Source: Minisyncoccota bacterium
GTDB lineage: Bacteria > Patescibacteriota > Microgenomatia > UBA1400 > PJMF01
NCBI GenBank assembly: GCA_012515515.1
Contig: JAAYYE010000012.1
Coordinates: 48,604-112,603 of the forward strand
Length of the DNA: 64,000 nt
Direction of reading: 5' to 3'
Position numbers and translations under genes: made by a program. The notes under the pieces were generated by a model. The model saw nothing but the letters and a program-made list of their open reading frames with translations. It searched no databases and was not told the DNA's origin. This document shows, piece by piece, positions 8,847 to 36,105 of this stretch; positions within the stretch are counted from its first letter, which is position 1, and each line of letters starts with the position of its first letter.

Positions 8847-8910
8847 AGATCTTTACTTAAAATTGATTAAATCTTAAATTAATTAAATATTTTGTTGCAC
8901 TATTGTAACA

Positions 8911-9969: not shown

Positions 9970-10021
9970 AACACCTCTAATCTTAACACAAGACATCAAT
10001 TAATGGGATAAAAAAACAAGA

Positions 10022-10888: not shown

Positions 10889-10991
10889 AATATCATTAAT
10901 CTAGAACAGGCTTAAAATAATTATTATATTTATATATTAATGTCTTATAGTAACACAAATTAGGATTTTTTTCAATTCACAAAAAAACAAG

Positions 10992-11381: not shown

Positions 11382-11401
11382 TCTGGGAAAGGTCAAATAA
11401 T

Positions 11402-12166: not shown

Positions 12167-12201
12167 TTCTGGAAAAATTTGAGAATAAATATTAAATAAT
12201 G

Positions 12202-12270
12202 TTGCGGGACTAGGAGTCGAACCTAGCCTGTGGGATTATGAGCCCCACGTGCACCGTACACTATCCCGCG
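12202..12270 (-). tRNA. Initiator tRNA-fMet (anticodon CAU)
   Basis: Minus-strand CGCGGGA-T-A...TGGGG-CTCATAA-TCCCA...CTAGG-TTCGACT-CCTAG-TCCCGCA-A; C1.A72 mismatch and G29-G31 run in anticodon stem are initiator hallmarks; no encoded CCA. Confidence 0.75.
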
Positions 12271-12273
12271 ACT

Positions 12274-12352
12274 TATTCTTGTATTATAGCTTAAGTTCAG
12301 CTTGTTTTTCAAGAGAAAAAACCTTAAAATATCCCCGACTAGTTAATCTAGC
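12274..12352. promoter_or_regulatory. Back-to-back divergent promoters for the two CAU tRNAs
   Basis: Plus: TTGTTT-17-TAAAAT; minus: TTGAAA-18-TATAAT, overlapping in the 80-bp spacer. Confidence 0.35.
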
Positions 12353-12426
12353 GGCGAGGTAGCTCAGTTGGTTAGAGCATCGGATTCATAAACCGAAGGT
12401 CGTGAGTTCAACTCTCACCCTCGCTA
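12353..12426 (+). tRNA. tRNA with CAU anticodon, elongator tRNA-Met or tRNA-Ile2 (lysidine)
   Basis: GGCGAGG-TA-GCTCAGTTGGTTAGAGC-A-TCGGA-TTCATAA-ACCGA-AGGTC-GTGAG-TTCAACT-CTCAC-CCTCGCT-A; normal 1:72 pair; A31.A39 mismatch; identity cannot be settled by eye. Confidence 0.7.
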
Positions 12427-14094
12427 CAAAGGTATTTTTAAATTATCACTTAATAAAAATCCTGGTGTTTCCCGATCGTCAAGATAACTTTGCTCTACAG
12501 TTCTTAGCTTTTCTGGACGACCATCACGACAATTGGCTGGAGTAATATACAAGGTTCTACCCTCAAACTCTGGAAAGCCACATGAGTCTTGGTAAAATTT
12601 AAATTTGCCAATTGTATAATTAGCCTCATAACGTGCCAGTGGTTGAGCTTGAACCTCTTCAATAGAAATTAAACCTTCTAGCCACAAATAAATATACATT
12701 TCTCTTAAGTCACTACTAAAAACAAGCTGATCATAATCATTGAGATGATCCTTAATTAAGGGCGTGACAATCTCATAATGACGACTGCGAGCATTGGTGT
12801 AAATAATTGGTGTAGCAATAAAATATTGCTGAATAAAATAAGCAAGACTCCAAACATATAACAAAACAGTGATTGCGGCAAATAAAAAATTCCATTTACG
12901 CTTCAAGTTTTTTAAAATATGAAAAATATATTCTAAACCCAGCGCAATAATCAGGCTTAGAGGCAAAATTAAATTAAAAGAGCGAATACTACTGGGAATT
13001 TCTTCGGTGGTGAGAGCAGCTGGAATCGGAGCTAAGACTAACAAAATTAAAACGAAAGGAATTAAATTTGCATATTTTTTATACTTTATTAATCGTGCCA
13101 AACCGAAAAAAAATAAAATTATTTCAAAAAAATAAAATAAACCATGTTCTAAAACAATAAATCTCCTAGTTGCTCCACCAGTGATAAATAAATAGTTAAG
13201 ATTAAAATGTGCCAAATAGTTCTCAAAAAAATATCTAAAATAGAAAAATGGCTTATTATAAAAGCCCCTAAGCAATAACAACGGGGTCTGACCAGTGCTT
13301 TTAGTAGTAAATTGAAAAATTAAGGCTTTTGGCAAGTCATTATTTAAAACTCCAATTGCTGAAAATCTAGTCAAAGCAGAACTCAGAGTTAAAATGAAGG
13401 ATAAAAAAATTAAAGCCAATAAAATTAAATAAGTTTTTTTAAGTCTTTTAGAATTTTTTCTTAATACATTTAATAAAAAGTAGATACTATAAAAACCAAA
13501 CAAAATGATTTTATTTGAATGATAACTGTACATTCCTAAAATGGCAGTTAGAAAAAATAAAAAATAGTGGGTTGGTTGAGTTTTTGTGCTTCTAGTAATT
13601 TTTAACAATAAGATTAAATTTGCCACTAACAACATAAAGCCAAGAATCACTTCCTCTGTGGCTCGTGAATTAACAATGTGCCACGGTGAAATGCTTAATA
13701 GCAACATGGCTAATAGAGCTAAGCGTTTATTATTATTGCTGAGTTCCTTAACCAGATAATAAAACAATACAATTGAAACTACTCCAATTAAAGCCGATGG
13801 CAAACGTGAGGCGAAAATATTTTTACCAAAAATAGCCAAAAATGGAACTTGCAAGTATGAATATAAGGCTGGCTTCGGATCAATTAGAGAATTTAACTGA
13901 ATCGGTAAAGACTGTCCGTCTTCATCCTTCAGCGTTTCTAAAATAGCGCTCGAATTAATTAAAAAAGAGGCCTCATCAGCCTGCAAACCTTTCGGAACTT
14001 CCCCTAGTCGATAAATTCTTAAAAAACTAGCCAGTAAAAGAATTAAAGCAAAAAGTAGTCTAGTTAGATTTTGTTTGTTAAAAATTTTTATCAT
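12424..14094 (-). CDS. GT-C fold membrane glycosyltransferase, ArnT/PMT (GT39/GT83)-like
   Basis: About 12 TM helices, N-terminal RLGEVPKGLQADEASF loop motif characteristic of ArnT/PMT_2 family, large C-terminal periplasmic domain. Confidence 0.55.
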   Translation of the reverse strand: MIKIFNKQNLTRLLFALILLLASFLRIYRLGEVPKGLQADEASFLINSSAILETLKDEDGQSLPIQLNSLIDPKPALYSYLQVPFLAIFGKNIFASRLPSALIGVVSIVLFYYLVKELSNNNKRLALLAMLLLSISPWHIVNSRATEEVILGFMLLVANLILLLKITRSTKTQPTHYFLFFLTAILGMYSYHSNKIILFGFYSIYFLLNVLRKNSKRLKKTYLILLALIFLSFILTLSSALTRFSAIGVLNNDLPKALIFQFTTKSTGQTPLLLLRGFYNKPFFYFRYFFENYLAHFNLNYLFITGGATRRFIVLEHGLFYFFEIILFFFGLARLIKYKKYANLIPFVLILLVLAPIPAALTTEEIPSSIRSFNLILPLSLIIALGLEYIFHILKNLKRKWNFLFAAITVLLYVWSLAYFIQQYFIATPIIYTNARSRHYEIVTPLIKDHLNDYDQLVFSSDLREMYIYLWLEGLISIEEVQAQPLARYEANYTIGKFKFYQDSCGFPEFEGRTLYITPANCRDGRPEKLRTVEQSYLDDRETPGFLLSDNLKIPL

Positions 14095-14126
14095 TCACTT
14101 GTATTATAGAACTTATTACCAATATT

Positions 14127-14156
14127 AAAAAAGGGAGTCATCAGACTCCCTTTTTA
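14127..14156 (-). terminator. Rho-independent terminator downstream of groEL (bidirectional hairpin)
   Basis: GGGAGTC-ATCA-GACTCCC (14133-14150) flanked by A-run and T-run. Confidence 0.6.
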
Positions 14157-14209
14157 ATCTCAGCGGTAACAATTTTTACATCACACCTGGTTTTACATCA
14201 TGCCTAGTT

Positions 14210-15862
<1,653 letters not shown>

Positions 15863-21601: not shown

Positions 21602-22324
21602 ATGAGTAAGTCTTCTTATTTCTTTCAAATTGCTATTGATGGACCAGTGGCTGCTGGCAAAGGAACAGCTTCTCGACTATTAGCCGAAAAAATTAATTTT
21701 TTGTATGTTGATACTGGAGCGATGTATCGCGCTGCTGCTCTCTTAGCAATAGAAAATCATGTAGATTTTAGTCAAGAAGATAAAATTGTTGATTTGATTG
21801 CTAAAAGCGATTTGGAGATGCGCAATCCCGAGGGGAATAAAGAAATGGACGGCCGATTAACGACCTTAATTTTGAATGGCAAAGACGTCTCTTGGGCAAT
21901 TCGTACTACTCAATGTAGTGATGGTGCTTCAAAAGTGGCTACCTTAGCCAAGGTGAGACAGATTTTAGTGGAAAAACAAAAGAAAATTGCCGAAACGACC
22001 AATGTGGTTATGGAAGGACGCGATATTACTTTTAAGGTTTTGCCAGAAGCAGATTTGAAAATATTCTTAACGGCTGATTTAACAATTAGAGCTCAACGTC
22101 GCCATTTACAGTACTTGACCAAAGGCGTTGATAAAACTCTAGAAGAAGTAATTGCCGAGGTTCAAGAACGAGATGAAAGAGATATGAATCGGCAAATTGA
22201 TCCCCTCCACGCTACAGCTGACTCTTGGATTCTAGACTCTAGTCAATTAAATATTGAGGAGGTAGTCGCTTTAATTGCTGATAAAGTTGAGGTAATGATT
22301 AAAGAAAAAGCAAAGCATTCATGA
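21602..22324 (+). CDS. cmk: Cytidylate kinase
   Basis: IAIDGPVAAGKGT P-loop, DTGAMYRA motif. Confidence 0.85.
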   Translation: MSKSSYFFQIAIDGPVAAGKGTASRLLAEKINFLYVDTGAMYRAAALLAIENHVDFSQEDKIVDLIAKSDLEMRNPEGNKEMDGRLTTLILNGKDVSWAIRTTQCSDGASKVATLAKVRQILVEKQKKIAETTNVVMEGRDITFKVLPEADLKIFLTADLTIRAQRRHLQYLTKGVDKTLEEVIAEVQERDERDMNRQIDPLHATADSWILDSSQLNIEEVVALIADKVEVMIKEKAKHS

Positions 22325-22535: not shown

Positions 22536-25103
22536 TTAAAAAATTTGCCCACCCTGAAACTGAGCTGCCTCAATTGTTTTTTGTTCATTTGCCGCGGCTA
22601 AATCAATAAAATATTGATCGCTGCAAGCTTGCAGTGGTTCAGTACCCGCTACAAAAATTTCTTCTACTACTTTAGGGCAAGCGCTACAAGGTAAAGTCCC
22701 CGTTGTGGCACAAATTTTAACTTTTTTAAGATTGCTGGGCATCGCGAAGCGATGAGGATTTTGCTTATCAAGAAGTAAGAGAAAAATTTTATTCCAAATT
22801 GGCGATGCCCCGGTAATTCCAGAAGCCACATAGCTCATGGGCGTGTTGTCATTGTTGCCTACCCAAGTCGCAACCAAGCGATCCGTAGTATAACCAATTG
22901 TCCAGTTGTCCTTCATGCTGTTGGTGGTGCCTGTTTTAACCGCGACTTCTTGATTGGGAATATTTAACACCGAGTGCAAACCAAAAGCGCTAGCTCGAGC
23001 TTGATTATCAGACAAAATATCAGAGATTGTATAAGCCACGCTGGGGCTTAATTTTAAGGAAGTGTAACAATTAGTTGTAGAAATAGCACAATTATTAGAA
23101 TACAAAGTCTGACCGCCGGCATCTCTAATTTCTAAAAAAGGATTAGCTTCAACTGGATAACCTAAATTGGCAAAAGTGCTAAAGACTTCAACCATGTCGA
23201 TCATTAATACCTCGCCCGCTCCCAGGGTTAAAGATAAACCAAAACGACTAGGATCGGTCCAGGTGCTGATACCTAACTCTCGGCCTTCATTAATTAAATT
23301 TTGCACACCTAGCTCGGCTAACAATTTGACTGCTGGCACATTGTAAGAAGAAGCCAAGGCTTCTCTTAAAGTAATTTTGCCGCGAAATTTTCCGTCATAG
23401 TTGCGTGGCGTGTAGGGACGACTGCCAACTATTTGGTAAGTAATGCTGCTGTCCTCAATTAAATCACTTGGTTTTTTACCCTGCTCAAAAGCTAAGGCAT
23501 AAGTTAAAGGTTTAATGGATGATCCTGGTTGGCGTGGTCGAAGGGTCACATTAACTTGACCATCGTGAGCAAAATCGAAATAGTTCACTCCACCGATCAT
23601 CGCTAAAATTTCACCTGTCTTGGGATTGGTAACCAGGGCTGCTCCATTGCTAATGTGTAAATTCCCCAAAAGATTAATTTCTTCACTGACTATCTTTTGC
23701 ACCTCTTCTTGTAAAGTTAAATCCAAGGTGGTTCTGACTTCTAAACCGCCTTTTGCCACCAAATCTTCTCCATACATTTCAGCCAATAATTTTTTAACAT
23801 ACATCACAAAATGCGGTGCTTTAATATCAATCACATCCTCGCTAAACTGCAGTTTTTCTACTCTAGCTTCGTCTGCTTGTTCTTGACTAATATAGCCATC
23901 TTCAACCATTCTCCTTAAAACGTCTGCTTGTCTAGCTTTGGCTATTTCTGGATTGGGCCCATAGGGCGAATAAGTACTAGGAGCTTGTGGAAGGCCAGCC
24001 AACAAGGCACTCTCAGCTAAACTTAAATCTTTAGCTCTTTTGTTAAAATAGCGCCAAGAAGCTTCCTCAATGCCATATGTAGAACCGCCATAAGGCACTG
24101 TGTTTAAATACATTTCCAGAATTTCATCTTTTTCGTAGGCTCCTTCTACTACTAAAGACAATAACAATTCTCTTAGTTTTCTTTGCAAGGTTCGTTCATT
24201 GCTCAGCAAACGGCTTTTAACTAATTGTTGGGTGATGGTCGATCCACCCTGCACTTTATCACTAGTGACATTTGTAAATAGAGCCCGCAAAATGCCTACA
24301 GGTGAAAAACCAAAATGTTGATAAAAATTTTTATCCTCGATAGCAATCGTGGCATTAATTAAATGTTCAGAAACAGATTTTAGAGGAACCAAAGTCCTGT
24401 TTTCATCCTCGTAAATTCGATAAAGCATTTGTCCATTACGATCTAAAATTCGCGTCGTGAGATTTTGCTGCTGAGTACTTAGATCAGTGGCAGAGGGCAA
24501 ATCTTTAAAAACAAAATCATAAACTCCATAGCTAAATAATAAAAAAAGTAGAGAAAAAATAATTGAAGCAAATAAAGAAAAGTTAATACGCCAGCGTTTA
24601 ACTTTTTTTAGACCAGTTTGAAAATAAGCAATTTCTTTTTTTTGAAAAAGGATTTTTCTTAAACTAGTTAAGTAATTTTTTTTGAAAAATGAAAAACGAG
24701 TCTTCTTTTTTCTTGGTCGACCCACTCTTTTTTTTAGACCGCAAAATCTTAGAAATTTCTGCCAACGAGCTTGATGCTTTTTAAGAAATTGTTTTCGAGA
24801 TTTAGCATTCTTGTTTTTTCGCTGTTGCCAAAAACGTTTAAATTTAACAGTTTTGGCTAATTTTGGTCGGCCAGGACTCTGTTTAATTCCAGTTTTTTTA
24901 GCCAAAATTAAAAAGCCTGCTTTTATTTTTTTTGCGTTTTTTTTAATTTTTTTCTGCTTTTCTTTAATTTTGTCCAGAATAAATCTATAACACTTCACAT
25001 GAAAAGCCAATTGTGGTCGGCCACGTTTTCTTTTTTTTTGCTCTAAGCGATATTTTTTTTGCTTTTCTTGAGAATTTTTCCTGACTGCCATGCTAAAAAG
25101 CAT
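22536..25103 (-). CDS. mrcA: Class A penicillin-binding protein (PBP1A-type transglycosylase/transpeptidase) with about 170-aa lysine-rich cytoplasmic N-terminal extension
   Basis: GT51 motifs ATIAIEDKNFYQH, QGGSTITQQLVK; transpeptidase SxxK (SSIKP), SxN, KTG(T); K/R-rich N-terminus before TM. Confidence 0.85.
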   Translation of the reverse strand: MLFSMAVRKNSQEKQKKYRLEQKKRKRGRPQLAFHVKCYRFILDKIKEKQKKIKKNAKKIKAGFLILAKKTGIKQSPGRPKLAKTVKFKRFWQQRKNKNAKSRKQFLKKHQARWQKFLRFCGLKKRVGRPRKKKTRFSFFKKNYLTSLRKILFQKKEIAYFQTGLKKVKRWRINFSLFASIIFSLLFLLFSYGVYDFVFKDLPSATDLSTQQQNLTTRILDRNGQMLYRIYEDENRTLVPLKSVSEHLINATIAIEDKNFYQHFGFSPVGILRALFTNVTSDKVQGGSTITQQLVKSRLLSNERTLQRKLRELLLSLVVEGAYEKDEILEMYLNTVPYGGSTYGIEEASWRYFNKRAKDLSLAESALLAGLPQAPSTYSPYGPNPEIAKARQADVLRRMVEDGYISQEQADEARVEKLQFSEDVIDIKAPHFVMYVKKLLAEMYGEDLVAKGGLEVRTTLDLTLQEEVQKIVSEEINLLGNLHISNGAALVTNPKTGEILAMIGGVNYFDFAHDGQVNVTLRPRQPGSSIKPLTYALAFEQGKKPSDLIEDSSITYQIVGSRPYTPRNYDGKFRGKITLREALASSYNVPAVKLLAELGVQNLINEGRELGISTWTDPSRFGLSLTLGAGEVLMIDMVEVFSTFANLGYPVEANPFLEIRDAGGQTLYSNNCAISTTNCYTSLKLSPSVAYTISDILSDNQARASAFGLHSVLNIPNQEVAVKTGTTNSMKDNWTIGYTTDRLVATWVGNNDNTPMSYVASGITGASPIWNKIFLLLLDKQNPHRFAMPSNLKKVKICATTGTLPCSACPKVVEEIFVAGTEPLQACSDQYFIDLAAANEQKTIEAAQFQGGQIF

Positions 25104-25131: not shown

Positions 25132-27309
25132 CTAAATAGGACAAGCGCCAGACTCACATTTCATATGCTCCATGCTAATATCTTCTAGCAAAGCATTTTG
25201 ATCTTCCTGGCTAATCTCATTGATTACTTCCATAAATTGACTAATAGTGACTGCTTCTTCCGGCTGATATTCATAAGCAGTAATATCAATTTTTGGCATC
25301 ACACTACAGGTTTTAATGTGTGGTTGATATTTACGAATCATATTAGAAAATTTACGGTAAGAAACCTTTTCAGGATCATATTTAAGGGTATAAGAAATTT
25401 GGTTGCCTTTATCTTCGCTCAGTGGTTTCCCTGCTTCGTCCACGCCGCGAATCCAATATTTTTCGAGTAGCATTAGCCATTGATATTGCTCTTCTGGCGT
25501 AGCTTCACTGGCAGTGACTAGCTTGCCATTCATGCCCAAGCGACAAATTTCTGGTTGGGTTGGAAAACCGACAGCCGTCGTACCCTGATAACTTTTGAGT
25601 TCTTTAATTGGGTAACCTAATTTTTTATATTTTTTTACCAAGGGATCATCATCTCTAAATTGCACCCAACGAATATATTCGCGCATGGCTGGCAAATGAG
25701 CTCCTTCTGACAAAGCAAATAATTTTGAAGTCGTGCCAGCGGGCTTAATGGTCGTATTGGTATGAGGAGTGACTACGCCCAAAAGTTTGGCATATTTTTC
25801 AGCTTCATCTTCGACAGCCCGCTTAAAACGAGCAATAGTTAACCAAAAATCTTGGCTTTTTTCCTCATCTATTAAATCGTGAAAAGCATAGCCAAAAGCG
25901 TTCCAAGCGTATTCATGTAGTCCAGTCATCCCGACACCAATGCGATTGGTTCTTTGAACCTCTCTGGTATACAAACTATCCATATAAGTATTAACCCTAA
26001 TCAGCGCTCGAGTTGCAACGCGAAAGGCTTCTTCAGCGCTATCGGCATCAGGAGCAAAATAAGGCACCACGTCAGCAATCACACAATAACCTCCCAACAT
26101 ATTCAGTGTAATTTCACCACAAGGATTGGGAATTTGAGTGTAATATTTGGCACTGGCATATTTAGCCACTTCAGCCAACATTTTGAGAGTTTGTTTCATC
26201 GGCTGGAACTTTTTACTACTAGCATATTTCCCATCTAAATAACCATCAAAGCCTTCGTCATTTTGCACCAGACTATGCTGGTTAACAAAACCAGGCTCTC
26301 CCGTTCGATCAAAATAGGCAGAACGCATCACCGCATCTAAGACTTTTTGTGAATGCTTACTATTCTGCTTCCAAAATTTATCGTCAACAGCCACACTATT
26401 ATTAGCAGACCACAAAAAACCACCTTTTTTAATACTGATAAAATCAAAAATATCTGGATCAGTCCAAGTTTTAACTGAAATTCTAGCTGCTCGTCTAGCC
26501 CCTCCCACTAAGACACATTCGGACAAATAATGATCAACATACATGCTTTGTTTCCAGGGCTTAAGACCTGCTCCCTTGACTGTGGCCACACGCTGAATCG
26601 CTTTAATTAAGGGCCTGGGTCCAGAAGCCGGTCGACCCTGCATCCCACCAATCGGCGAACCCTTGGCTCTCACCTTGGAAAAATCTAAGATTAGGAGCTC
26701 ATCTTTATATTTTTTCTCAAAAGTCATTACCTCAATTTTTTCTATTGCTTGAGCCCAACCTTCACGGGTATCTGGCACTTCAAACCAATGAGCCTTACGA
26801 TATTTATGTCGAGCCTCTTTCACACTCTCATCTTCGCCCCAAGCAAAATCAGGATGCTGATCACTCAAAACACAACGAATAAGTGGCATATAATCCCAAT
26901 CAACCACCATCAGCGCATCATCATAAGCGCGACCCACTCCAGAACCATTCAACAATAAATAAAATAATAAAAAGCTTGAAGAAGCGGTGCTACAGTTTGT
27001 AAACACCTCCATATTTCTGCTGGGTTGTTCTGCATCCCCATGTTGTAGGTGCCGCCCGCTTAAAAGCAAAGAAGCATTAGATAAATGCTTTTTTAATAAT
27101 CGATATTCTTGCTGTTGATGTTTTGCCCATTTTTCTTCCTGTGGCAATAATGAGGAATTACCAATAGCAACCCTTTTTGCCACATCTTGCCAAGATTCTA
27201 GCTCGCCATTGGCTTTGGTCCTTAAAATAGTGCGTTTAGCTACTGCTTCACCTAAGCCTTTGGCCAATTGGCGGTTTTGAAATTGCATTTTTTTTCTATA
27301 GGCAGTCAT
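25132..27309 (-). CDS. nrdJ: Class II (adenosylcobalamin-dependent) ribonucleotide reductase, monomeric RTPR-like
   Basis: Active-site NPCGEI, N-terminal similarity to L. leichmannii RTPR (KRT..R....E.W..V.KRV..GN), C-terminal cysteine pair CESGACPI; downstream of nrdR. Confidence 0.75.
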   Translation of the reverse strand: MTAYRKKMQFQNRQLAKGLGEAVAKRTILRTKANGELESWQDVAKRVAIGNSSLLPQEEKWAKHQQQEYRLLKKHLSNASLLLSGRHLQHGDAEQPSRNMEVFTNCSTASSSFLLFYLLLNGSGVGRAYDDALMVVDWDYMPLIRCVLSDQHPDFAWGEDESVKEARHKYRKAHWFEVPDTREGWAQAIEKIEVMTFEKKYKDELLILDFSKVRAKGSPIGGMQGRPASGPRPLIKAIQRVATVKGAGLKPWKQSMYVDHYLSECVLVGGARRAARISVKTWTDPDIFDFISIKKGGFLWSANNSVAVDDKFWKQNSKHSQKVLDAVMRSAYFDRTGEPGFVNQHSLVQNDEGFDGYLDGKYASSKKFQPMKQTLKMLAEVAKYASAKYYTQIPNPCGEITLNMLGGYCVIADVVPYFAPDADSAEEAFRVATRALIRVNTYMDSLYTREVQRTNRIGVGMTGLHEYAWNAFGYAFHDLIDEEKSQDFWLTIARFKRAVEDEAEKYAKLLGVVTPHTNTTIKPAGTTSKLFALSEGAHLPAMREYIRWVQFRDDDPLVKKYKKLGYPIKELKSYQGTTAVGFPTQPEICRLGMNGKLVTASEATPEEQYQWLMLLEKYWIRGVDEAGKPLSEDKGNQISYTLKYDPEKVSYRKFSNMIRKYQPHIKTCSVMPKIDITAYEYQPEEAVTISQFMEVINEISQEDQNALLEDISMEHMKCESGACPI

Positions 27310-27320
27310 ATTTTTTCTTT

Positions 27321-27770
27321 CTATTCTTTGATTTTGGCAATCTCTTCTTCAAAATCAGCTAGATCGCCAAAATCTCGATAAACACTAGCAAATAATAAAT
27401 AAGAAAGAGGGTCTAATTTTTTTAAGCGGTTTAAGACTAAATTACCAATTTCCCAACTCTTTATTTCTTGAACATTTTTTTGTCGAAGCTTAGCCTCCAC
27501 TTCTTCAATGAGTAGTTCAATTTGTAACATGGTAATTGGTCTTTTCCAGGTTGCTTTCAACAAACCACGCTTAATTTTTTCTCGATCAAAATTTTCCCGA
27601 GAACCATCCTTCTTGATTACTTTCAAATCTACACCCTCAACTCTCTCATAGGTTGTGAAACGCTGCTCACAATCTTGGCAAATTCTTCGTCTTCTAATTG
27701 ACTCCCCGTTATCAGCTTCCCGTGAATCAATTACTTCGGTGTTTTTGCTTTTACAAAATGGACAATACAT
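27321..27770 (-). CDS. nrdR: Transcriptional repressor NrdR
   Basis: MYCPFCKSKNTEVIDSR...CQDCEQRFTTYE zinc ribbon plus ATP-cone. Confidence 0.9.
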   Translation of the reverse strand: MYCPFCKSKNTEVIDSREADNGESIRRRRICQDCEQRFTTYERVEGVDLKVIKKDGSRENFDREKIKRGLLKATWKRPITMLQIELLIEEVEAKLRQKNVQEIKSWEIGNLVLNRLKKLDPLSYLLFASVYRDFGDLADFEEEIAKIKE

Positions 27771-27817
27771 TTTTAGATTTTAATATGGTTATATCGCGCT
27801 ATTTTTTAGCGAATTCT

Positions 27818-27900
27818 ACAACATTTTGTGGTTTAAAAGTTTTTGACCACAAAATGTAGTATTTTTAATAACTGGAATAAAAATATCTCACATTTGTGAG
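27818..27900. promoter_or_regulatory. Candidate NrdR boxes and promoter region upstream of nrdR-nrdJ
   Basis: Three CAC-N8-GT(G) palindromes: 27818-27831 ACAACATTTTGTGG, 27847-27860 CCACAAAATGTAGT (inverted copy of the first), 27887-27900 CTCACATTTGTGAG; minus-strand TTGACA -35 at 27905-27910 and TAGAAT -10 near 27812-27817. Confidence 0.4.
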
Positions 27901-27917
27901 TATGCTGTCAATAGCAA

Positions 27918-28469
27918 TTACTGAAGTAACTGATCTCTCAGTAAAGTGGTTTCTTCATGCAATGACTTAAGCACTCGATTATCTGCATCAGTGAAATAAT
28001 TAAGATTTTCTTCGACAACTTCTTGATGCTCATCAAGGGCTTCCAAAACAAAAAAAACTAGCTGTTCAACTGCTGGGTCGTGGGTATTTTCATCATTTAA
28101 GCTTTTGACTTCTTGTAGAGCCTGGTTGTAATATTTTTGAGCCTTAGTAAAAGTGCTGAAAGCTAAAGCGGCCTCCTCCTTCTCTATTAAGCGACTGGCA
28201 TAAAAAACCCGCCGCTTAGCATAAGCGACTAATAAATAAATCCGTCGCTCACGATCTGCCATAGATAAGCGCAGGCGATCAAAAAGCATGAGAACAGGAT
28301 ATAAAGAGTGGTCTGGCAATATCTCTTTTTGCACATAGAATTTTCTGCTTTTAAAGTTTGGTATATCAGTCATTTTTGACTGGGAAAAAACATTGAAAGA
28401 AGTTAACAAGATAAATAGTGATACAGAAATTGCTAAGACAAGTAAGAATGATTTAAAAAATTTAGACAT
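27918..28469 (-). CDS. Hypothetical secreted protein
   Basis: N-terminal signal peptide MSKFFKSFLLVLAISVSLFILLTSFNVFS; helical remainder; last gene of 4-gene minus-strand cassette. Confidence 0.3.
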   Translation of the reverse strand: MSKFFKSFLLVLAISVSLFILLTSFNVFSQSKMTDIPNFKSRKFYVQKEILPDHSLYPVLMLFDRLRLSMADRERRIYLLVAYAKRRVFYASRLIEKEEAALAFSTFTKAQKYYNQALQEVKSLNDENTHDPAVEQLVFFVLEALDEHQEVVEENLNYFTDADNRVLKSLHEETTLLRDQLLQ

Positions 28470-28492
28470 AAATTTTACTAAGTAGACGATGA

Positions 28493-29176
28493 TTAAAAAT
28501 GAACCAGCAAAATCATTCCCCAGATAGCCTGAGTCATTAATAAAGTATAAGCATTGCGCTGAACATAAAAGATTAAAGCTTGGCCAATAGCAAAAGCAAA
28601 TAATAAAATAGCGTGGACATAGGCTGTTTCCAAACTAAAACGTAAAAATAAATTAGGCAGATGGAAGATTAAAAAGATTAAGGCAACCAAGATAATTTGT
28701 GCAACTAGAGGCCATTTCTTGTAACGATCTTCAATCACCAACATAACAAAACTGAAAAAGAATAGGCTTTCAAAAAATCCAGTTAAAGTCGCTAGAAAAA
28801 GCTCCCACCAAAAATCATCAGCTAAGTAAAAAGCTTGTGCTTGAATAGGCCCAGGATTGATGAAAGCTTTGGTAATGAGCAAGGCAAAACCCAATATCCC
28901 GCCAATAATTAAGCCAAGTAATAAGCCTTTTTTTAATTTTTTGTAAGAGAAAGTGTCCATGGTGGCCGAAAAACCAGAAATGCTCAAATAAATTAAAACT
29001 GGTAGTGCAAAAAAAATACTTTTTCCCACTAATTCATCAAAAAAAACAGAGAAAGACGATAGCGCTCGATATAAAACCCAAAGAATAAAAACAACAAGCA
29101 GCAAAGGCCAAAATAATCGATGTTTTTGCTTTTTATTTTGTTGGCGCTTGGTTGTGGTTCTTTTTTTTGATGGCAT
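28493..29176 (-). CDS. Polytopic membrane protein, CPBP/Abi (CAAX protease)-like with degenerate motifs
   Basis: 6-7 TM; FESLFF (degenerate EExxxR), FLIFH (FxxxH), HAILL region; basic N-terminus. Confidence 0.3.
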   Translation of the reverse strand: MPSKKRTTTKRQQNKKQKHRLFWPLLLVVFILWVLYRALSSFSVFFDELVGKSIFFALPVLIYLSISGFSATMDTFSYKKLKKGLLLGLIIGGILGFALLITKAFINPGPIQAQAFYLADDFWWELFLATLTGFFESLFFFSFVMLVIEDRYKKWPLVAQIILVALIFLIFHLPNLFLRFSLETAYVHAILLFAFAIGQALIFYVQRNAYTLLMTQAIWGMILLVHF

Positions 29177-29822
29177 GCAGAGCTAGTTTTAAAGTTTCCT
29201 CTTGGTTGTGAGAATATGTATCGATAACTAAATCGTATATGTCTGGACGCCAAAAATCAAGCTCCGCGTTTGCAGCAACCCTTCCCGTCTCGACTAACCA
29301 ACTTTCCCATTCCTTTTTGTACATTCTTTGCCACTTAATTAAGTTGTCTTGATAGCGCGTTAAGGCATGATTTTTGGCTTCTTCAACACTGATTTTGTCG
29401 CGATTAACAATACGATCAATGCGTACCGCATCATCACTACAGACCATCAATATCTTTAAAGTTGTCGGGATATTTTGAGCCATAAAACCAGACAGCCAAG
29501 ACTCAATAATCCAACCTTCTTCGCCGAGAAGTTTTTCTCTAATTCCCATATCGACCTGACGATCAAAATCATCGCTATAGACCACGGCACTGTGATGAAC
29601 TTTTGATTTGGCATCAAACAAGCCTTTTTCATTGGCATAGGCACGCATGAACTCTCCTCCAGAAAAACCAGTAAAACCGGCGTATTTAAGCTCTTCACTC
29701 AACATTTTGAGCAAAGTAGTTGAGCCACAACCAGGCAAACCAGAAATTGTGACATTTTTGTAGTAAATATTTTTTAAAGATTCTATTGAAGACATATTAA
29801 CTTTCAATCGCTTTGCTTTCAT
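29133..29822 (-). CDS. Cytidylate kinase-like P-loop protein with degenerate Walker A (GLPGCGSTT, Lys replaced)
   Basis: VTISGLPGCGSTTLLKMLSEEL...SGGEFMRAYA parallels Cmk IAIDGPxxSGKGT...TGAMYRA; alternative start MSSIES at 29795 abuts upstream stop by 1 nt. Confidence 0.45.
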   Translation of the reverse strand: MKAKRLKVNMSSIESLKNIYYKNVTISGLPGCGSTTLLKMLSEELKYAGFTGFSGGEFMRAYANEKGLFDAKSKVHHSAVVYSDDFDRQVDMGIREKLLGEEGWIIESWLSGFMAQNIPTTLKILMVCSDDAVRIDRIVNRDKISVEEAKNHALTRYQDNLIKWQRMYKKEWESWLVETGRVAANAELDFWRPDIYDLVIDTYSHNQEETLKLALHAIKKKNHNQAPTK

Positions 29823-30300
29823 TGTGTTTGTTTAATAATTTTACTGTTTCTCGCATGACATTTTGCATTCTATGCAGATAAGCAATGGCCTCGCTTAGGC
29901 TTAAAACTTTCTCACCATTGGGAAAAAAATGAAAAACATGGTTGCGGCAAACCAACCAAGTTTGCCAAATTTCTCTAGCCAACTCTTGATTAAAAATCCG
30001 AGCAATATCATCAAAAAACCACCATTGATCTCGTTGTTTGGGACTGACATCAGGATTTAAGGCCCGACCAATACGAAAGCGCCGGCCATAATAAACCTTG
30101 TGGCTAATTAATTCTAAATCTAATAAAACCTTTTTAAGAAAACCCTCATAAGCCTTGGCCATAGGAAAAACCACAAAAGAGAAATCATTAATATTAGTGT
30201 CATTAACAAATTGCTCGCTTAAATAAAAGCTAGTCTTGACTAAATTTTGCTGCCAAGAATCTAAATATTGAAAACAGGGTTCTTCTTGAAAGGTTTGCAT
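29797..30300 (-). CDS. Hypothetical protein with HepT/DUF86-like HEPN motif (RNHVFHFF = Rx4HxF)
   Basis: Motif CRNHVFHFF at residues 121-128 of 167 resembles HepT RNxxxHEY; no other recognizable domain. Confidence 0.3.
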   Translation of the reverse strand: MQTFQEEPCFQYLDSWQQNLVKTSFYLSEQFVNDTNINDFSFVVFPMAKAYEGFLKKVLLDLELISHKVYYGRRFRIGRALNPDVSPKQRDQWWFFDDIARIFNQELAREIWQTWLVCRNHVFHFFPNGEKVLSLSEAIAYLHRMQNVMRETVKLLNKHNESKAIES

Positions 30301-30336: not shown

Positions 30337-32778
30337 TTGAAACAGCTAAAAAAATCCAAGAGCATGCTGAATAAAAAACTTATTAGTAAAAGCCAAAAAA
30401 AGAAGATTGAGAGCCAGAAAATGAAGATTAAGAGCTCTTTTTTATATTGGCAAAAAAAAATCAAAAAAATTTTTTGGCAAAATAAAAAATGGCGCTTTAC
30501 TTGGATGGCTGCCTTGCTGCTCATCATCGCTGTATTAATCTATTTACTAAAAGATTTACCATCACCTACAAAATTAACTTCTTCAGAAAATTACGCTGTT
30601 AGTACGCAAATTTTTGATCGCAATGGTCAGTTGTTGTATGAGGTGTATGGAGACGAAAACCGCACTCCTGTTGATATTGAGTCTTTGCCCGATCATTTGT
30701 TACAAGCCACCATTGCCATTGAAGATAAAAATTTTTATCGACATCATGGTTTAGACATTCGGGGCTTAGTGAGAGCAGCCATCAATAATATCACTGGCGG
30801 CAACACTCAGGGCGGTTCTACAATCACCCAGCAATTGGTAAAAAATGCTTTATTAACTAAAGATAGAACTTTTGATAGAAAAATTAAAGAAGCCTTCTTA
30901 TCATTTTTAACCGAAATCATTTACAAAAAAGAAGACATTTTAGAAATGTATCTTAACTATATTCCTTATGGAGGCACAGCCGTTGGCGTTGAAGCAGCAG
31001 CCAATCAATATTTCAATAAATCAGCCAAAGATTTAACTATGGCTGAAAGTGCTTTATTAGCTGGATTACCAAAAGCACCTAGCACTTATTCGCCTTTTGG
31101 CGCTTATCCAGAAAAAGCTAAAATGAGACAAAAAGAGGTTTTGCGCCGAATGTCTGAAGACGGATACATCAATAAAGACAGATTGAATGAAGTTGAAAAT
31201 GAAACATTAACTTACGCCCTAAAAAAAACCGATATTAAAGCTCCTCATTTTGTCTTTTACATAATCGATTTGTTGCAAAAAGAATACGGTGAAGACACGG
31301 TTAAAACTGGCGGATTGCGCGTCACCACTACCCTCGATTTAGATTTACAAGAAGCGGCTCAAGCTTCTTTATCTGCCGAAATTAATAAGTTAAGTAATTT
31401 AAAAGTTAGTAACGGAGCGGCTTTGGTCACTAAACCAAACACTGGAGAAATCTTAGCAATGATTGGTAGCAAAAATTATTTTGACATGGATCATGATGGA
31501 CAAGTTAATGTAACTATTGCTTTCAGACAGCCTGGCTCATCAATTAAACCAATTATGTATGCCAGTGCTTTTCAGGAAAAGACACTGAATCCAGGCTCAA
31601 TGCTTTTAGACATCTCCACTTGTTTTAGAGTGACTGGTCAAAAGGATTATTGTCCAAAAAATTATAGTGGCGGATTTTCTGGTCCAGTCACGGTCAGAAA
31701 AGCTTTGGGCAATTCTCTGAATATCCCCGCAGTCAAAGCTTTAAGTACTATTGGCGTTGAAAAATTTATTAAACAAGCCAATAAAATGGGCATTACCAAC
31801 TGGGTTGATCCAAGTCAATATGGCTTATCTTTAACTCTGGGAGGCGGAGAAGTCAGAATGGTCGACATGGCAACTGCTTTTGCTGTGATAGCTAACCAAG
31901 GAGTTAAAGTGCCAAGCACAGCCATTTTAGAAGTAAAAAATTACAAAGGTGAAGTTTTGAGCAGTGCTGATTTGGAAACTCGCAAACAAACATTACTCCA
32001 CATGACTGAAAATGAAGAAATCACTGAAGAAATTGATTTAGAAAGAGTTATGCGGCGAGCGCCAGCCTATCTAACTGCCCACATCATGCAAGACAATAGC
32101 GCTCGCCTCATGGCCTTTGGTAGCAATAGCCAGCTAGTAATTAAAGATAAAGTAGTGAGTGCTAAAACTGGCACCACCAACGACCTAAAAGATAATTGGA
32201 CTGTCGGTTTTACTCCAGAATTTTTAAGCATTGTGTGGGTGGGTAATAATGACAATTCTTCGATGAGTTACTTGGCTTCTGGCATCACTGGTGCCGCACC
32301 AATTTGGAATGATATCATGAGCTATATTTTAGAAAATGAACAAATTATTTGGCCTGAGCGTCCAGCCGATGTAAAGATGGCCTATGTCTGTCAAACAGGC
32401 ATGCCAGCTGATCGTGGTTTGGGCAATAATCGTAACGATTGGATGAATAGAAACACTAGTGATTTAACGCTTAAATTCAACGAACAACAGCAAATTTATT
32501 TACAAGAAACTGACCCAGCGCAAACTTGCCAAGCTGGCGCACAAGAGCTTTATTGGGAAGAATCACTACCAAGCTATTCTGGTAGTTTCCAAAAAGAGTT
32601 TTGGATTCGTAAGGAAACTGGACTACCACCTGCCGTTGGCGAAGAAGCCGATGATTTGGTTTTAGAATTACATCAATTTTATTATGATCCAGTTACTAGC
32701 CTCTACTGTGCTGATTGTACTCGACCAATTGATGAAGAAACTGGCGAAACCATTTTTGAAAAAAATTATGTTAATTAG
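30337..32778 (+). CDS. Class A penicillin-binding protein, second paralog, lysine-rich N-terminal tail
   Basis: ATIAIEDKNFYRHHG, QGGSTITQQLVKN (GT51); transpeptidase SSIKP, SLN, KTGTT. Confidence 0.85.
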   Translation: MKQLKKSKSMLNKKLISKSQKKKIESQKMKIKSSFLYWQKKIKKIFWQNKKWRFTWMAALLLIIAVLIYLLKDLPSPTKLTSSENYAVSTQIFDRNGQLLYEVYGDENRTPVDIESLPDHLLQATIAIEDKNFYRHHGLDIRGLVRAAINNITGGNTQGGSTITQQLVKNALLTKDRTFDRKIKEAFLSFLTEIIYKKEDILEMYLNYIPYGGTAVGVEAAANQYFNKSAKDLTMAESALLAGLPKAPSTYSPFGAYPEKAKMRQKEVLRRMSEDGYINKDRLNEVENETLTYALKKTDIKAPHFVFYIIDLLQKEYGEDTVKTGGLRVTTTLDLDLQEAAQASLSAEINKLSNLKVSNGAALVTKPNTGEILAMIGSKNYFDMDHDGQVNVTIAFRQPGSSIKPIMYASAFQEKTLNPGSMLLDISTCFRVTGQKDYCPKNYSGGFSGPVTVRKALGNSLNIPAVKALSTIGVEKFIKQANKMGITNWVDPSQYGLSLTLGGGEVRMVDMATAFAVIANQGVKVPSTAILEVKNYKGEVLSSADLETRKQTLLHMTENEEITEEIDLERVMRRAPAYLTAHIMQDNSARLMAFGSNSQLVIKDKVVSAKTGTTNDLKDNWTVGFTPEFLSIVWVGNNDNSSMSYLASGITGAAPIWNDIMSYILENEQIIWPERPADVKMAYVCQTGMPADRGLGNNRNDWMNRNTSDLTLKFNEQQQIYLQETDPAQTCQAGAQELYWEESLPSYSGSFQKEFWIRKETGLPPAVGEEADDLVLELHQFYYDPVTSLYCADCTRPIDEETGETIFEKNYVN

Positions 32779-34080: not shown

Positions 34081-36105
34081 TTAAAAATCTTTGCTAAATT
34101 GCTTCGCTAAGAAGAAAGACCAGGTTCCCGTAGCTACAAAAAACAAGCCTATTACCAATAAACTTAAGGTGTTAAATGTTGAGCCCGCATTATAGGTACC
34201 ACTTTGGGTAGAAACCACAGTTTCTCTAATACTGGCTGTTGCTTCTTCAATAGGTTCGACTGTGGGAACGGGAGTTGGCGTTACATCTTTAACTGGTAAA
34301 TAAGGATCGCCAGTGCCATGAGGCAAGTCTGAGCCTGTTTGAGCGCTAGCAATAGGTCTCGTTTCATTTTCAATATTACTGCCAGGAGGAGAAACTGTAA
34401 AATTATAGCTTTTAGACACTTCTTGACCGGTTCCTGGATCGATGTAGGTATAATTAATGCTGTGCTCTCCAGGGCTTAAGTTCTTTTTTAAACTGGCTAT
34501 ATCGACCTCAACATTGCCATCGGCATCTGTTTCTACAATGGTTTCAATGGCAGTGTCTGAATGAATCTCGATTTTAACAGTGACATTGGGTGGTAAATTA
34601 GCCTTAATGATTGGCTGGGTGCTTGTTATAACATTATCTTGAGCTGTGCTAGCTTCATCAACTTCGTTTAAATCTAGTATTCGCTGACTATCAGCCAAAG
34701 CTGTTATCTCCTCCTCACCCCATTCATTCTCTAATTGGTTGTTTTGTGCTAAATTGGCATCAGTGCTTGCTTCTTCTTGGATAACTTCGTGTGTTTCCAG
34801 CTCTTCACTATCAACAGAATTTTCGCTACTTTCAAACTCCTCAGCCAACAATTCTTCTCTGGTGGTTAATGATTCTTCGCTAGCCTCCTGACCAACAATA
34901 ATTTCTGGCACCGGTTGAGCGCCAGCCACATTCACCACTCTATTAGAGACTGAATTTAAATCAATTCCTTGAACTTTGATTGATAAAACAGTATCTTCAC
35001 TTACTTGTGGGTAAGCATTAAGACTTAAATTAAAAGCATTGGCTAAAGACACTGCCCAACTTCCAGAGGATTTAACAATAGTTGATAAAGCGCCAGCTCC
35101 CTCAGGAGTAACAAAGACAATTGCCCCCTCTCCAGGCTGACCACTTATCTGACCAACTGTTCCATAGATTGTTTGATTATTTGGAGAAGCATTGCTTAAA
35201 CTACTTGCGGTTGTGATTTGATAAGGAGCACCATTGTTATCAAAACTTGAATTGCTGCCAGTGCTTAAATTGTAATAGTAGCTTGTATTTGGCTCTAAAC
35301 CTCTGACTGTAATATGGTGTAAACGATACGGCTTAATTACACCAGACAACTGATCACGATCATCACTAGCCTGTTGTTTTATATCATTAGCGCTTGGACC
35401 ATATTTAACAGAAGCAATAATCTCTTCATCAGTATAAAAAGAAACTGTAAAGGCTTTGTCTGTGACATTGCTGACAACAATATTTTGCGGAGTTGTGGCT
35501 GGTGTCGCTCTCGGAGCAAACAGCCCGGTGCCATTTCCAAACAAGAGCACTCCCGCCACCATGGAAACAATTAAAATCAGTAAACCCAAAAGTGTTGGGA
35601 TTTTTTTCTTAACTGTTTTATTATCTGTTTTTTTATCTGTTTTTCCGCCTGAAATTTTCCATTTTTTTGAGGGTTTTTCTTTAGCTTTTTTGCCAATTTC
35701 TTCAGTTGGTACAACTTTATCTTTATTTGAATTTGCTTTTGGCATTGTCTTTGCGGGTGAGCTTGGAGCAACGCTTGGAGTTGGAGTTTGAACTGGGGCT
35801 GGAATTGGAGCTACAGCTTGAGCTGGGACTACAACCTTGCCTGCAGCTGATGTTGGACTGGTAGCTGATGCTACACCTGGCGGAGAGGAACCCGCTGGAG
35901 CGACTACTTTTGGAGTTGCGCTCGGCAATTTTACTTGTTTTGTTAGATTAATTTGCGCGGGATTGGCTTTTTGAGTATTAACCAACGGATTTGGCATTTT
36001 TACAGGGGTATTGGTTTGAGCAGTTGCGGATTGAGGAGGCACCGGCTTTGGCAAATTTAAACCTAGTTGAGGATTAGTTGGTTGATTTTGATTTAAAATT
36101 TGCAT
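34081..36105 (-). CDS. Large surface protein: Pro/Thr/Ala-rich N-terminal region, TM, fibronectin type III-like domain, acidic region, C-terminal TM anchor
   Basis: Low-complexity PTPS-rich N-terminus; FTVSFYTDE...YGPS...HHITVRGLEPNTSYYY Fn3/PAP-N-like block; C-terminal hydrophobic LLVIGLFFVATGTWSFFLA. Confidence 0.4.
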   Translation of the reverse strand: MQILNQNQPTNPQLGLNLPKPVPPQSATAQTNTPVKMPNPLVNTQKANPAQINLTKQVKLPSATPKVVAPAGSSPPGVASATSPTSAAGKVVVPAQAVAPIPAPVQTPTPSVAPSSPAKTMPKANSNKDKVVPTEEIGKKAKEKPSKKWKISGGKTDKKTDNKTVKKKIPTLLGLLILIVSMVAGVLLFGNGTGLFAPRATPATTPQNIVVSNVTDKAFTVSFYTDEEIIASVKYGPSANDIKQQASDDRDQLSGVIKPYRLHHITVRGLEPNTSYYYNLSTGSNSSFDNNGAPYQITTASSLSNASPNNQTIYGTVGQISGQPGEGAIVFVTPEGAGALSTIVKSSGSWAVSLANAFNLSLNAYPQVSEDTVLSIKVQGIDLNSVSNRVVNVAGAQPVPEIIVGQEASEESLTTREELLAEEFESSENSVDSEELETHEVIQEEASTDANLAQNNQLENEWGEEEITALADSQRILDLNEVDEASTAQDNVITSTQPIIKANLPPNVTVKIEIHSDTAIETIVETDADGNVEVDIASLKKNLSPGEHSINYTYIDPGTGQEVSKSYNFTVSPPGSNIENETRPIASAQTGSDLPHGTGDPYLPVKDVTPTPVPTVEPIEEATASIRETVVSTQSGTYNAGSTFNTLSLLVIGLFFVATGTWSFFLAKQFSKDF

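Follow-up and report, generated by a model that had tools for sequence, protein, structure and literature searches.

A group of four minus-strand genes, here called H, K, M and S, is on balance probably an operon with housekeeping functions, inherited vertically throughout a lineage of Microgenomatia of the Pacebacteria/Woesebacteria type (Patescibacteria), and not the toxin-antitoxin or defence cassette proposed for it in an earlier note. The group lies just upstream of nrdR-nrdJ, within the 5.2 kb between two class-A PBP genes of the window, by which we mean the whole 64,000-nt stretch of DNA that was analysed. All four ORFs that the note had placed between the PBP genes are present, and Pfam confirms the genes around them: NrdR (27321-27770) and NrdJ (25132-27309), PBP genes with Transgly and Transpeptidase domains on the minus strand (22536-25103) and on the plus strand (30337-32778) and, also among the flanking genes, a GH18 gene and a canonical Cmk. 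H (29797-30300) encodes a 167-aa HEPN protein that we assign to the RnlA/LsoA (RNase LS) class, and K (29133-29822) a 229-aa member of the Cytidylate_kin2 family with an NMP-kinase fold. M (28493-29176) encodes a 227-aa polytopic membrane protein, apparently a divergent CPBP/Rce1-like one, and S (27918-28469) a 183-aa protein in which an N-terminal hydrophobic segment (signal or anchor) is combined with a DUF5667 domain. No nucleotidyltransferase is encoded between the two PBP genes, so that MntA is indeed absent, as the note had said.

The genes had been described as packed with overlaps or 1-nt spacing throughout. This holds at the H/K junction (a 26-nt overlap with the first ATG of K, or a 1-nt gap with the alternative start ATG at 29795) and at the K/M junction (a 44-nt overlap), but not between M and S, which are separated by a 23-nt spacer. 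M starts inside the 3' end of K, an arrangement suggestive of translational coupling; the first residues of M (MPSK) are kept across the M family. Between S and nrdR, on the minus strand, an intergenic region (27771-27917) carries a promoter-like site found by promoter scan (TTGACA-18-GATATT at 27911-27882) and three palindromes, candidate NrdR boxes by their likeness to the published consensus. Downstream, the H-K-M-S unit is bounded by this region.

At least 503 species-level genomes encode a relative of H, and we compared gene order in the 80 that are closest by H. About 70 of the 80 have the order GH18<-PBP<-|H->K->M->S->nrdR->nrdJ, at H identities down to 40%, which confirms that the neighbourhood of the quartet is conserved in relatives. 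H is found at all 80 loci, K at 73, M at 71, S at 63, NrdR at 64 and NrdJ at 63; most of the absences are contig ends. Synteny spans the whole 16-kb neighbourhood, beyond the cassette itself. Since these small genomes generally conserve gene order, the fact that two genes are neighbours says less here than it would elsewhere about whether they are functionally linked. In most genomes K and M again overlap, and in about half H and K also overlap or lie close together. At one locus (L048) H, K and M stand together elsewhere, between an ABC exporter and RNase J. Three other loci have H and K apart or in altered orientation: L070, where the K-M unit is inverted, L079, where a giant gene follows H, and L080.

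By median identity to the window, K (63%) is better conserved than the canonical Cmk (58%); the PBPs stand at 58-60% and NrdR at 67%, and the fastest-evolving gene of the block is H. In their distance matrices, H follows NrdR, NrdJ and PBPb (r 0.65-0.68) to much the same degree as it follows K (r 0.63), which fits vertical descent. In a mirror-tree analysis with the shared phylogenetic signal removed, the partial correlation is weak between H and K (0.24) and close to zero between H and M. Correlations of identity to the window are low for H (0.44-0.50), probably an artefact of choosing loci by their similarity to H, and in full pairwise matrices H is no outlier.

The patchy, mobile distribution typical of toxin-antitoxin systems and defence islands is thus not what the cassette displays. 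In PADLOC-DB, H, M and S had no match at E≤1, and K had only weak sub-domain matches to generic kinase models, such as one to pVip-kinase (5e-6) that covers part of a 474-position fusion profile. No relative of H was found in the viral contigs scanned, and no homologue of RnlB, Dmd or MntA at the locus. On the PADLOC and viral-contig results we dropped a defence-system assignment, and with H evolving in step with NrdR, NrdJ and PBP the idea of a mobile defence module is not supported.

The earlier note had recognised a HEPN motif in H, and this part of its proposal stands. The H model (AlphaFold2, pLDDT 93) is a four-helix up-down HEPN fold, and in CRNHVFHFF the stretch R119-N-H-V-F-H124 fits Rx4-6H, in which a polar residue follows the Arg; all 80 H proteins from other genomes carry RNxx[FVIL]H. 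Four positions are invariant, K49, E52, R119 and H124 (KAYEGF ... CRNHVFH). The suggested HepT/DUF86 class, on the other hand, is not borne out: DUF86 gave no Pfam match for H, and the family profiles point to RnlA/LsoA. When members of the H family (519 homologues) were scanned against Pfam, 45 of 51 matched RnlA-toxin_DBD (PF19034) and 44 of 51 HEPN_RnaseLS (PF18869) at E≤0.01 (best E 5.6e-7). The window H lies below the curated cut-offs, at 17.3 bits versus 29 for HEPN_RnaseLS and 19.4 versus 27 for RnlA-toxin_DBD. As a single sequence it matched nothing in the PDB; the family profile alone reached LsoA, its best match (5hy3, E 0.08), with KAYEGF aligned to RAIEGF and CRNxxFH to NRHGLFH. 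In a fold search of a viral structure library the top match of H was a phage 'RNaseLS-like protein'.

RnlA and LsoA (PDB 5hy3, 7aex, 6y2r) are E. coli HEPN toxins. H shares with them x-A-x-E-G-F and R-x4-H, the latter preceded by W/x-x-x. All four positions of the catalytic site are kept, with Lys in H for Arg at the first: K49, E52, R119 and H124 align with R255, E258, R318 and H323, which are essential in RnlA (PMC8266594). Judged by its sequence, H appears to be an RnlA/LsoA-class HEPN protein with all catalytic-site positions conserved, and it is probably active as a HEPN RNase. By analogy it would most likely be a homodimeric, metal-independent endoribonuclease leaving 2',3'-cyclic-phosphate and 5'-OH ends. 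Unlike RnlA/LsoA, however, H consists of the HEPN (Dmd-binding) domain alone and lacks the two N-terminal TBP-like (NTD/NRD) domains, has no RnlB or Dmd partner, is followed by a gene for a P-loop kinase-family protein, and is single-copy and vertical at a fixed locus, whereas RnlA/LsoA are sporadic on mobile elements. The type VII toxin-antitoxin system HepT/MntA has the HEPN fold and the Rx4H motif in common with H but differs from the H locus in its DUF86 class, its MntA nucleotidyltransferase, its gene order and its partner. A literature search found no description of this H family. RnlA/LsoA-class HEPN RNases have so far been known as phage-defence toxins, sporadic on mobile elements. Here, a bare HEPN domain with its catalytic site intact is single-copy and vertical across a large Patescibacteria clade, beside a highly conserved gene of the nucleotide-kinase family; if H is active, a toxin-type RNase would have been recruited to core RNA metabolism in very reduced genomes.

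K is CMP-kinase-like with a P-loop that lacks the Walker lysine, as the note had read it, and both Pfam and an alignment of 74 sequences bear this out. The protein (AlphaFold2 pLDDT 85; 1279 homologues) scores above the Pfam cut-offs for AAA_17, Cytidylate_kin2 and AAA_18 (40.6 bits versus a cut-off of 28 for Cytidylate_kin2, PF13189). It is collinear with archaeal CMP kinase (TIGR02173, 68.5 bits, under the equivalog cut-off of 102.1), and its nearest structures are the structural-genomics Cytidylate_kin2 entries 3hdt and 3fdi. Our full-text literature search returned no reported function for any member of Cytidylate_kin2. The loop GLPGCGSTT spans residues 28-36, with Ser where CMP kinases have the Walker lysine, and G[LMF]PGxG[ST]TT is present in 74/74 aligned K sequences, the window K included. 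Over the wider family the Walker-lysine position varies (S, T, N, G, R or K).

The note had proposed K, with its Walker lysine replaced, as a possible kinase-like neutraliser. We dropped the argument that such a loop marks a dead kinase or neutraliser, as the position is variable in the wider family and GxPGxGSTT is found identically in a solved structure, adenylate kinase 1kht of Methanococcus voltae, which is reportedly an active enzyme; the P-loop of K is therefore no proof of inactivity. The Methanococcus AdkA structures (1kht, 1ki9, 6pjw) have GVPGVGSTT or GVPGVGGTT, lysine-less like GLPGCGSTT, and K aligns with AdkA over its N-terminal ~55 residues only (E ~1e-3), the rest of K being CMP-kinase-like. 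A CMK-like segment kept after the P-loop, SGGEFMR, presumably corresponds to the NMP-binding motif of CMP kinases. In CMP kinases the Arg of 'EGR' binds the NMP phosphate. More distant family members have E/D-G/S-R where K has 'ESW', and W109 of K appears to occupy the position of that Arg. K further differs from the distant members by a ~20-residue insertion near the C-terminus (EWxxWVVxxG...IDFW), which is conserved in the K orthologues of H-bearing genomes and missing from K-family proteins of genomes without an adjacent H. Without the Walker lysine and apparently with Trp for the EGR Arg, K may be no ordinary kinase.

The contexts of K-family genes outside the H-bearing genomes are informative. 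One locus (L082) has the order K-DUF5667-NrdR-NrdJ, with H and M absent, and at another (L084) a K-like gene lies amid genes for GMP synthase, IMPDH, adenosine deaminase and deoxyribosyltransferase. Five loci (L081, L083, L085, L086 and L087) read rpsB-tsf-frr-rseP-K-(NUDIX)-proS, and pyrH is missing from its usual slot between tsf and frr. Fusions of the family to NUDIX and to ribulose-phosphate epimerase also occur. These genes of sister lineages are probably orthologues of K, and their occurrence without H speaks against K as a neutraliser of H. The genomic contexts (upstream of nrdR-nrdJ, among salvage genes, in the pyrH-less rpsB-tsf-frr cluster) place the K family in nucleotide metabolism, and K itself would most likely be a pyrimidine NMP kinase or a nucleotide-binding protein. 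The family is a candidate P-loop kinase lineage with a dispensable Walker lysine, and a candidate replacement, in Microgenomatia, for the otherwise universal UMP kinase PyrH. A search with an E. coli PyrH sequence as the query found no pyrH in the window or in the relatives' loci, a result that says nothing on the window's own genome, as the window does not include an rpsB-tsf-frr region.

In the housekeeping operon that we favour, H would carry out housekeeping RNA cleavage or turnover, and K would act on the nucleotide side, supplying NDPs towards NrdJ. Such a working model would suit an organism of a group that is reported to lack complete nucleotide biosynthesis (PMC7143001). HEPN products (2',3'-cyclic-phosphate oligonucleotides) are not direct NMP-kinase substrates, hence a recycling link between H and K would be loose. 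Conserved adjacency is what suggests a physical or regulatory link among H, K and M. The housekeeping model has against it that K has no Walker lysine and that H and K are not always adjacent (L070, L079); a functional H-K link has against it a partial correlation of only 0.24.

Closer couplings of H and K can be envisaged. It is possible, though unlikely, that H-K(-M) is a domesticated RnlA-type core RNA-turnover machine, possibly membrane-associated, with the lysine-less K as a nucleotide-sensor gate or a 5'-kinase. If true, bacteria would have a counterpart to Las1-Grc3 or to the kinase-gated KEN/PrrC RNases, and RNA decay would be tied to pyrimidine/dNTP supply (nrdR-nrdJ). Less probable, and in our view doubtful, is the more definite proposal that K is a pseudokinase that senses nucleotides and controls the dimerisation or activity of H, RNA turnover being tuned to the pyrimidine/dNTP pool, possibly at the membrane through M. 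The RNase activity of KEN and PrrC/RloC is gated by nucleotide binding. These precedents (an NTPase domain in PrrC/RloC, a kinase-like domain in Ire1/RNase L) fit such gating, as do the conserved K/M overlap, the position of the operon directly upstream of nrdR-nrdJ, the K insertion that accompanies H, and the strong purifying selection on a K that has lost the Walker lysine and apparently the EGR Arg. The HEPN superfamily includes the RNase domains of KEN and PrrC/RloC (PMC3710099). However, the presence of the lysine-less loop in Methanococcus adenylate kinase leaves the loss of kinase activity unestablished, no H-K fusion was found, and the partial co-evolution signal is weak.

A slightly smaller chance is given to a pair resembling Las1-Grc3, the eukaryotic machine of ITS2 processing, in which H would cut a specific precursor RNA (pre-rRNA, tRNA) and K phosphorylate the 5'-OH for processing or decay; the note had offered a HEPN cut plus 5'-kinase as its alternative. 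A machine of HEPN nuclease and polynucleotide kinase is documented in Las1-Grc3 (PMC10942766), which offers a precedent. Like it, H and K combine a HEPN endonuclease with a P-loop kinase-family protein in a unit conserved clade-wide as core genes, and in L048 the H-K-M trio adjoins RNase J. But Grc3 is a Clp1-family polynucleotide kinase, and K is NMP-kinase-like: it is nearest to Cytidylate_kin2, CMP kinase and APS kinase, not to Clp1, Grc3 or T4 Pnk, and retains the CMK-like SGGEFMR segment. There is no sequence relationship, so the analogy would be a functional one, and K-family genes without H in sister lineages lie in nucleotide-metabolism contexts.

Quite improbably, the four are unrelated housekeeping genes with no functional link, co-transcribed in a compact, syntenic genome. 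The synteny of the entire 16-kb neighbourhood, the K-family genes in contexts without H or M, the loci at which H and K are separated or reoriented (L070, L079, L080) and the H-M partial correlation of about zero are all compatible with this; the persistence of H-K-M in L048 despite a changed neighbourhood, the K/M overlap in most genomes and the tight H/K junction in about half are not readily so. Least probable of all is the earlier note's own proposal of H as a HEPN toxin, K as a modifying or sequestering neutraliser (compare MntA-HepT and type VII toxin-antitoxin kinases) and M as an Abi-like effector, for although the closest characterised relatives of H are the RnlA and LsoA toxins, a phage protein tops its viral structure matches, a partner gene follows the HEPN gene as in rnlAB, H/K are tight or overlapping in about half of the genomes and H evolves fastest within the block, the locus keeps its place amid housekeeping genes in about 70 of 80 species-level genomes, across which H identity falls as low as 40%, H keeps step with NrdJ, NrdR and PBP, K is as well conserved as a housekeeping enzyme and has family members without H in sister lineages, RnlB, Dmd and MntA homologues are absent, PADLOC yielded nothing at E≤1 for H, M and S, and no relative of H turned up in viral contigs. 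The case is also a warning that 'HEPN plus neighbour' is not a toxin-antitoxin pair until gene distribution has been checked.

The last two genes agree well with their first description, as a CPBP/Abi-type membrane protein with degenerate protease motifs and a signal-peptide protein. CPBP/Rce1 proteases (PF02517, formerly 'Abi') have the motifs EExxxR, FxxxH and HxxxN/D. The window M had no Pfam match; of 34 M orthologues scanned one by one, 16 match PF02517 (best E 3.1e-10). M shares with these proteases the polytopic topology, the motif-1 Glu (E136) and the motif-2 FxxxH (H172), and lacks the second Glu and the Arg of motif 1 and the His/Asn of motif 3; FxxxHxPN is found in 65 of 71 M sequences. 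The sequence of M thus predicts a divergent member of the CPBP/Rce1-like membrane proteins in which the catalytic site is incomplete. S, which follows M in 63 of 80 loci, has the expected N-terminal hydrophobic segment and in addition matches DUF5667 (E 9.3e-9, 36 bits versus a cut-off of 27), as would befit an exported DUF5667 protein.

The four minus-strand genes between the two class-A PBP genes were recovered by ORF calling at the positions claimed for them: H (29797-30300, 167 aa), K (29133-29822, 229 aa), M (28493-29176, 227 aa) and S (27918-28469, 183 aa). The packing described in the earlier note holds for the first two junctions but not for the third. Read directly, the H-K junction is a 26-nt overlap with the first ATG of K or a 1-nt gap with the ATG at 29795; inspection of the other junctions gave a 44-nt overlap between the end of K and the start of M, and a 23-nt M-S spacer. 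Pfam agrees with the setting proposed for the genes, with Transgly and Transpeptidase domains in both PBPs (22536-25103, minus; 30337-32778, plus) and, beside S, NrdR (27321-27770, minus) and the B12-dependent ribonucleotide reductase NrdJ (25132-27309, minus). A canonical bacterial Cmk (21602-22324, plus) and a GH18 protein are also among the neighbours. The S-nrdR spacer contains a promoter-like site, TTGACA-18-GATATT (promoter scan and direct read), and three NrdR-box-like palindromes, ctcacaaatgtgag, actacattttgtggt and accacaaaatgttgtag, lie upstream of nrdR (27816-27911, minus), overlapping or following that site. This arrangement suggests that nrdR-nrdJ, probably under its own regulated promoter, is autoregulated apart from H-K-M-S, and the four genes probably form a unit upstream of the separately promoted pair.

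Scanned as a single sequence, H gave only sub-threshold Pfam matches, to RnlA-toxin_DBD and HEPN_RnaseLS. With each family member scanned, these models matched 45/51 and 44/51 sequences, respectively (best E 5.6e-7). LsoA was the top PDB match of the H family profile, KAYEGF aligning with RAIEGF and WLxCRNxVFH with WHENRHGLFH, and the sole convincing match in a viral structure library was a phage 'RNaseLS-like protein'. Residues R255, E258, R318 and H323 of RnlA are essential (PMC8266594). Their equivalents in H are all invariant, with Lys replacing the first Arg; K49, E52, C118, R119, N120, F123 and H124 are among the invariant positions of a 51-sequence alignment, and RNxx[FVIL]H is found in 80/80 orthologues. 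On these profile matches and conserved residues, H is predicted to be a stand-alone RnlA/LsoA-class HEPN domain with intact active-site residues. RnlA's N-terminal TBP-like domains are missing from it, and no RnlB-type partner accompanies it. The motif CRNHVFHFF and a HEPN with Rx4H, both reported previously, are thus present, but the HepT/DUF86 identity is ruled out by the RnlA-toxin_DBD and HEPN_RnaseLS matches and the LsoA alignment. The fold assignment is not new, since some family members already carry borderline HEPN_RnaseLS matches.

K passes the Pfam cut-offs of AAA_17, Cytidylate_kin2 and AAA_18, and reaches 68.5 bits against an archaeal CMP kinase model, under the equivalog cut-off of 102. 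Its P-loop contains the quoted lysine-less GLPGCGSTT, and G[LMF]PGxG[ST]TT is kept in 74/74 aligned K sequences. In a profile comparison with the PDB this loop aligned with those of Methanococcus adenylate kinases (1kht, GVPGVGSTT; 1ki9 and 6pjw, GVPGVGGTT), which we take to be active enzymes, so the missing lysine does not prove a dead enzyme. A search of 1.84 billion representatives placed all K orthologues in one 50% cluster and, in the wider family, showed the 'Walker lysine' site occupied by S, T, N, G, R or K. Four Cytidylate_kin2 proteins from this search have two domains; three combine GK[ST] in one domain with AGTS or AGSS, a P-loop devoid of the lysine, in the other, and the fourth (P0379; the set is P0327, P0342, P0379 and P0381) lacks the lysine in both. 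The Walker lysine has thus been lost more than once in the family. At the site of the 'E/D-G/S-R' of remoter family members, the K branch reads 'E[SG]W'; in CMP kinases, the Arg of this segment contacts the phosphate of the NMP. K also carries an insertion of its own, at about residues 168-190. By comparison with its family relatives, K may have unusual chemistry.

K-family proteins also occur in other Microgenomates (35-53% identity to K); these are probably K orthologues. Neither H nor M was found within 5-7 kb of their genes in the seven loci surveyed (L081-L087). The Gottesmanbacteria locus L082 has a K-like gene followed by DUF5667, NrdR, NrdJ and cobalamin adenosyltransferase genes, and the K-like gene of L084 is surrounded by those for GMP synthase, IMPDH, adenosine deaminase and nucleoside deoxyribosyltransferase. 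The other five, named as Roizmanbacteria where named, have the order rpsB-tsf-frr-rseP-K-like-(NUDIX)-proS, with tsf and frr adjacent or nearly so and the K-family gene two genes further, after rseP (L081, 4790-7579; L083, 4784-7561; L085, 2918-5549; L086, 2812-5567; L087, 378-5582). Since tsf is next to frr, pyrH is absent from its usual slot in all five. As a lead from these Microgenomates loci, the Cytidylate_kin2 gene may be a non-orthologous replacement of the UMP kinase PyrH. Other family members are fused to NUDIX or ribulose-phosphate epimerase domains. Together, the fusions and the contexts without H argue for a role of K in nucleotide metabolism and not as a dedicated neutraliser of H, the role suggested for it in the earlier note.

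M of the window has no Pfam match, and PF02517 (Rce1-like/CPBP) is matched by 16/34 of its orthologues (best E 3e-10). E136 and FxxxH (H172) are invariant; motif 1 lacks its second Glu and its Arg, and motif 3 its His/Asn. This is compatible with the proposed CPBP-like protein with degenerate protease motifs. S matches DUF5667 above the Pfam cut-off and has an N-terminal hydrophobic segment.

We scanned one genome per species and found an H relative encoded in at least 503; among 519 homologues, every organism-named one is from Patescibacteria (Pacebacteria, Woesebacteria). In the 80 closest genomes, where H identity falls from 96% to 40%, a GH18 gene and a PBP gene diverging from H-K-M-S-nrdR-nrdJ are retained in this order almost everywhere. 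The quartet recurs as the earlier note had proposed to check, with K near H in 73, M in 71, S in 63, NrdR in 64 and NrdJ in 63; missing neighbours are mostly at contig ends. The K/M overlap is kept in most genomes and tight H/K spacing in about half. K is more conserved (median identity 63%) than canonical Cmk (58%) and the PBPs (58-60%), nearing NrdR (67%) and NrdJ (71%). Exceptions include L070, with an inverted K-M unit; L048, where an intact H-K-M trio is flanked by an ABC exporter and RNase J; and L079, where a 2387-aa gene (8502-15665, minus) directly after H takes the place of K-M-S. In the encoded protein, LamG-like repeats come after numerous Cys-rich ones ('FADCDxATCSSGT'). RNase J directly adjoins H-K-M in L048 (9999-11648) and the K-like gene in L087 (5672-7519), which may be coincidence or a further tie to RNA turnover.

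We consider it reasonably probable that H-K-M-S is a lineage-specific housekeeping operon upstream of nrdR-nrdJ. It would comprise a HEPN endoribonuclease of RnlA type that is probably active, a protein of the nucleotide-kinase family, a predicted membrane protein of CPBP fold, encoded by a gene that begins within the end of K, and a presumably exported DUF5667 protein, with H, K and M perhaps coupled. Folds, conserved motifs, synteny, the vertical-descent pattern and K-family genes apart from H are shown by the data; the RNase and kinase activities and a coupling of H, K and M are inferred. An RNase gated by nucleotides, for which K would be the sensor, is unlikely; the conserved lysine-less loop is compatible with it. 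A Las1-Grc3-like pair, in which H cuts and K phosphorylates, seems rather doubtful, as K-family genes also stand without H. Co-transcription without functional coupling is quite improbable. In pairwise distances, H tracks NrdR, NrdJ and PBPb (r 0.65-0.68) no less closely than K (r 0.63), which fits vertical co-inheritance, and the H-K partial correlation is only 0.24 once shared signal is removed. The toxin-antitoxin or defence module of the earlier note, suggested by the HEPN domain, is highly improbable in view of fixed synteny, vertical descent, K family members without H, a PADLOC search with no match to H, M or S at E≤1 and only weak ones to generic kinase models for K (best pVip-kinase, 5e-6), and no H relatives in a viral contig scan. 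A full-text literature search returned no paper on the H family or on Cytidylate_kin2 function. The unusual feature here is that a HEPN domain of the RnlA class, with nothing else attached, has become a fixed core gene beside one for a lysine-less kinase-family protein.

Among MAG records with a locus of this Patescibacteria type, many bear the title 'uncultured Pseudomonadales bacterium' and others name Methylococcaceae or Limisphaerales, and CP011212.1 (L025), titled 'candidate division TM6', is listed under Microgenomatia order UBA1400 in PMC7143001; such titles are unreliable as taxonomy. In the window, the PBP at 22536-25103 has an extremely Lys/Arg-rich N-terminal extension of ~170 aa with repeated GRP(K/R)-like motifs before the membrane segment, and the PBP at 30337-32778 a shorter Lys-rich N-terminus. 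A 674-aa protein (34081-36105, minus) combines a long Pro/Ala/Thr-rich N-terminal region with a single hydrophobic segment in its interior and a hydrophobic anchor at the C-terminus. Strong strand asymmetry is reported for complete genomes of order UBA1400 (PMC7143001); across positions 1-64000, most 2-kb windows show negative GC skew and cumulative skew declines near-steadily over the 64 kb.
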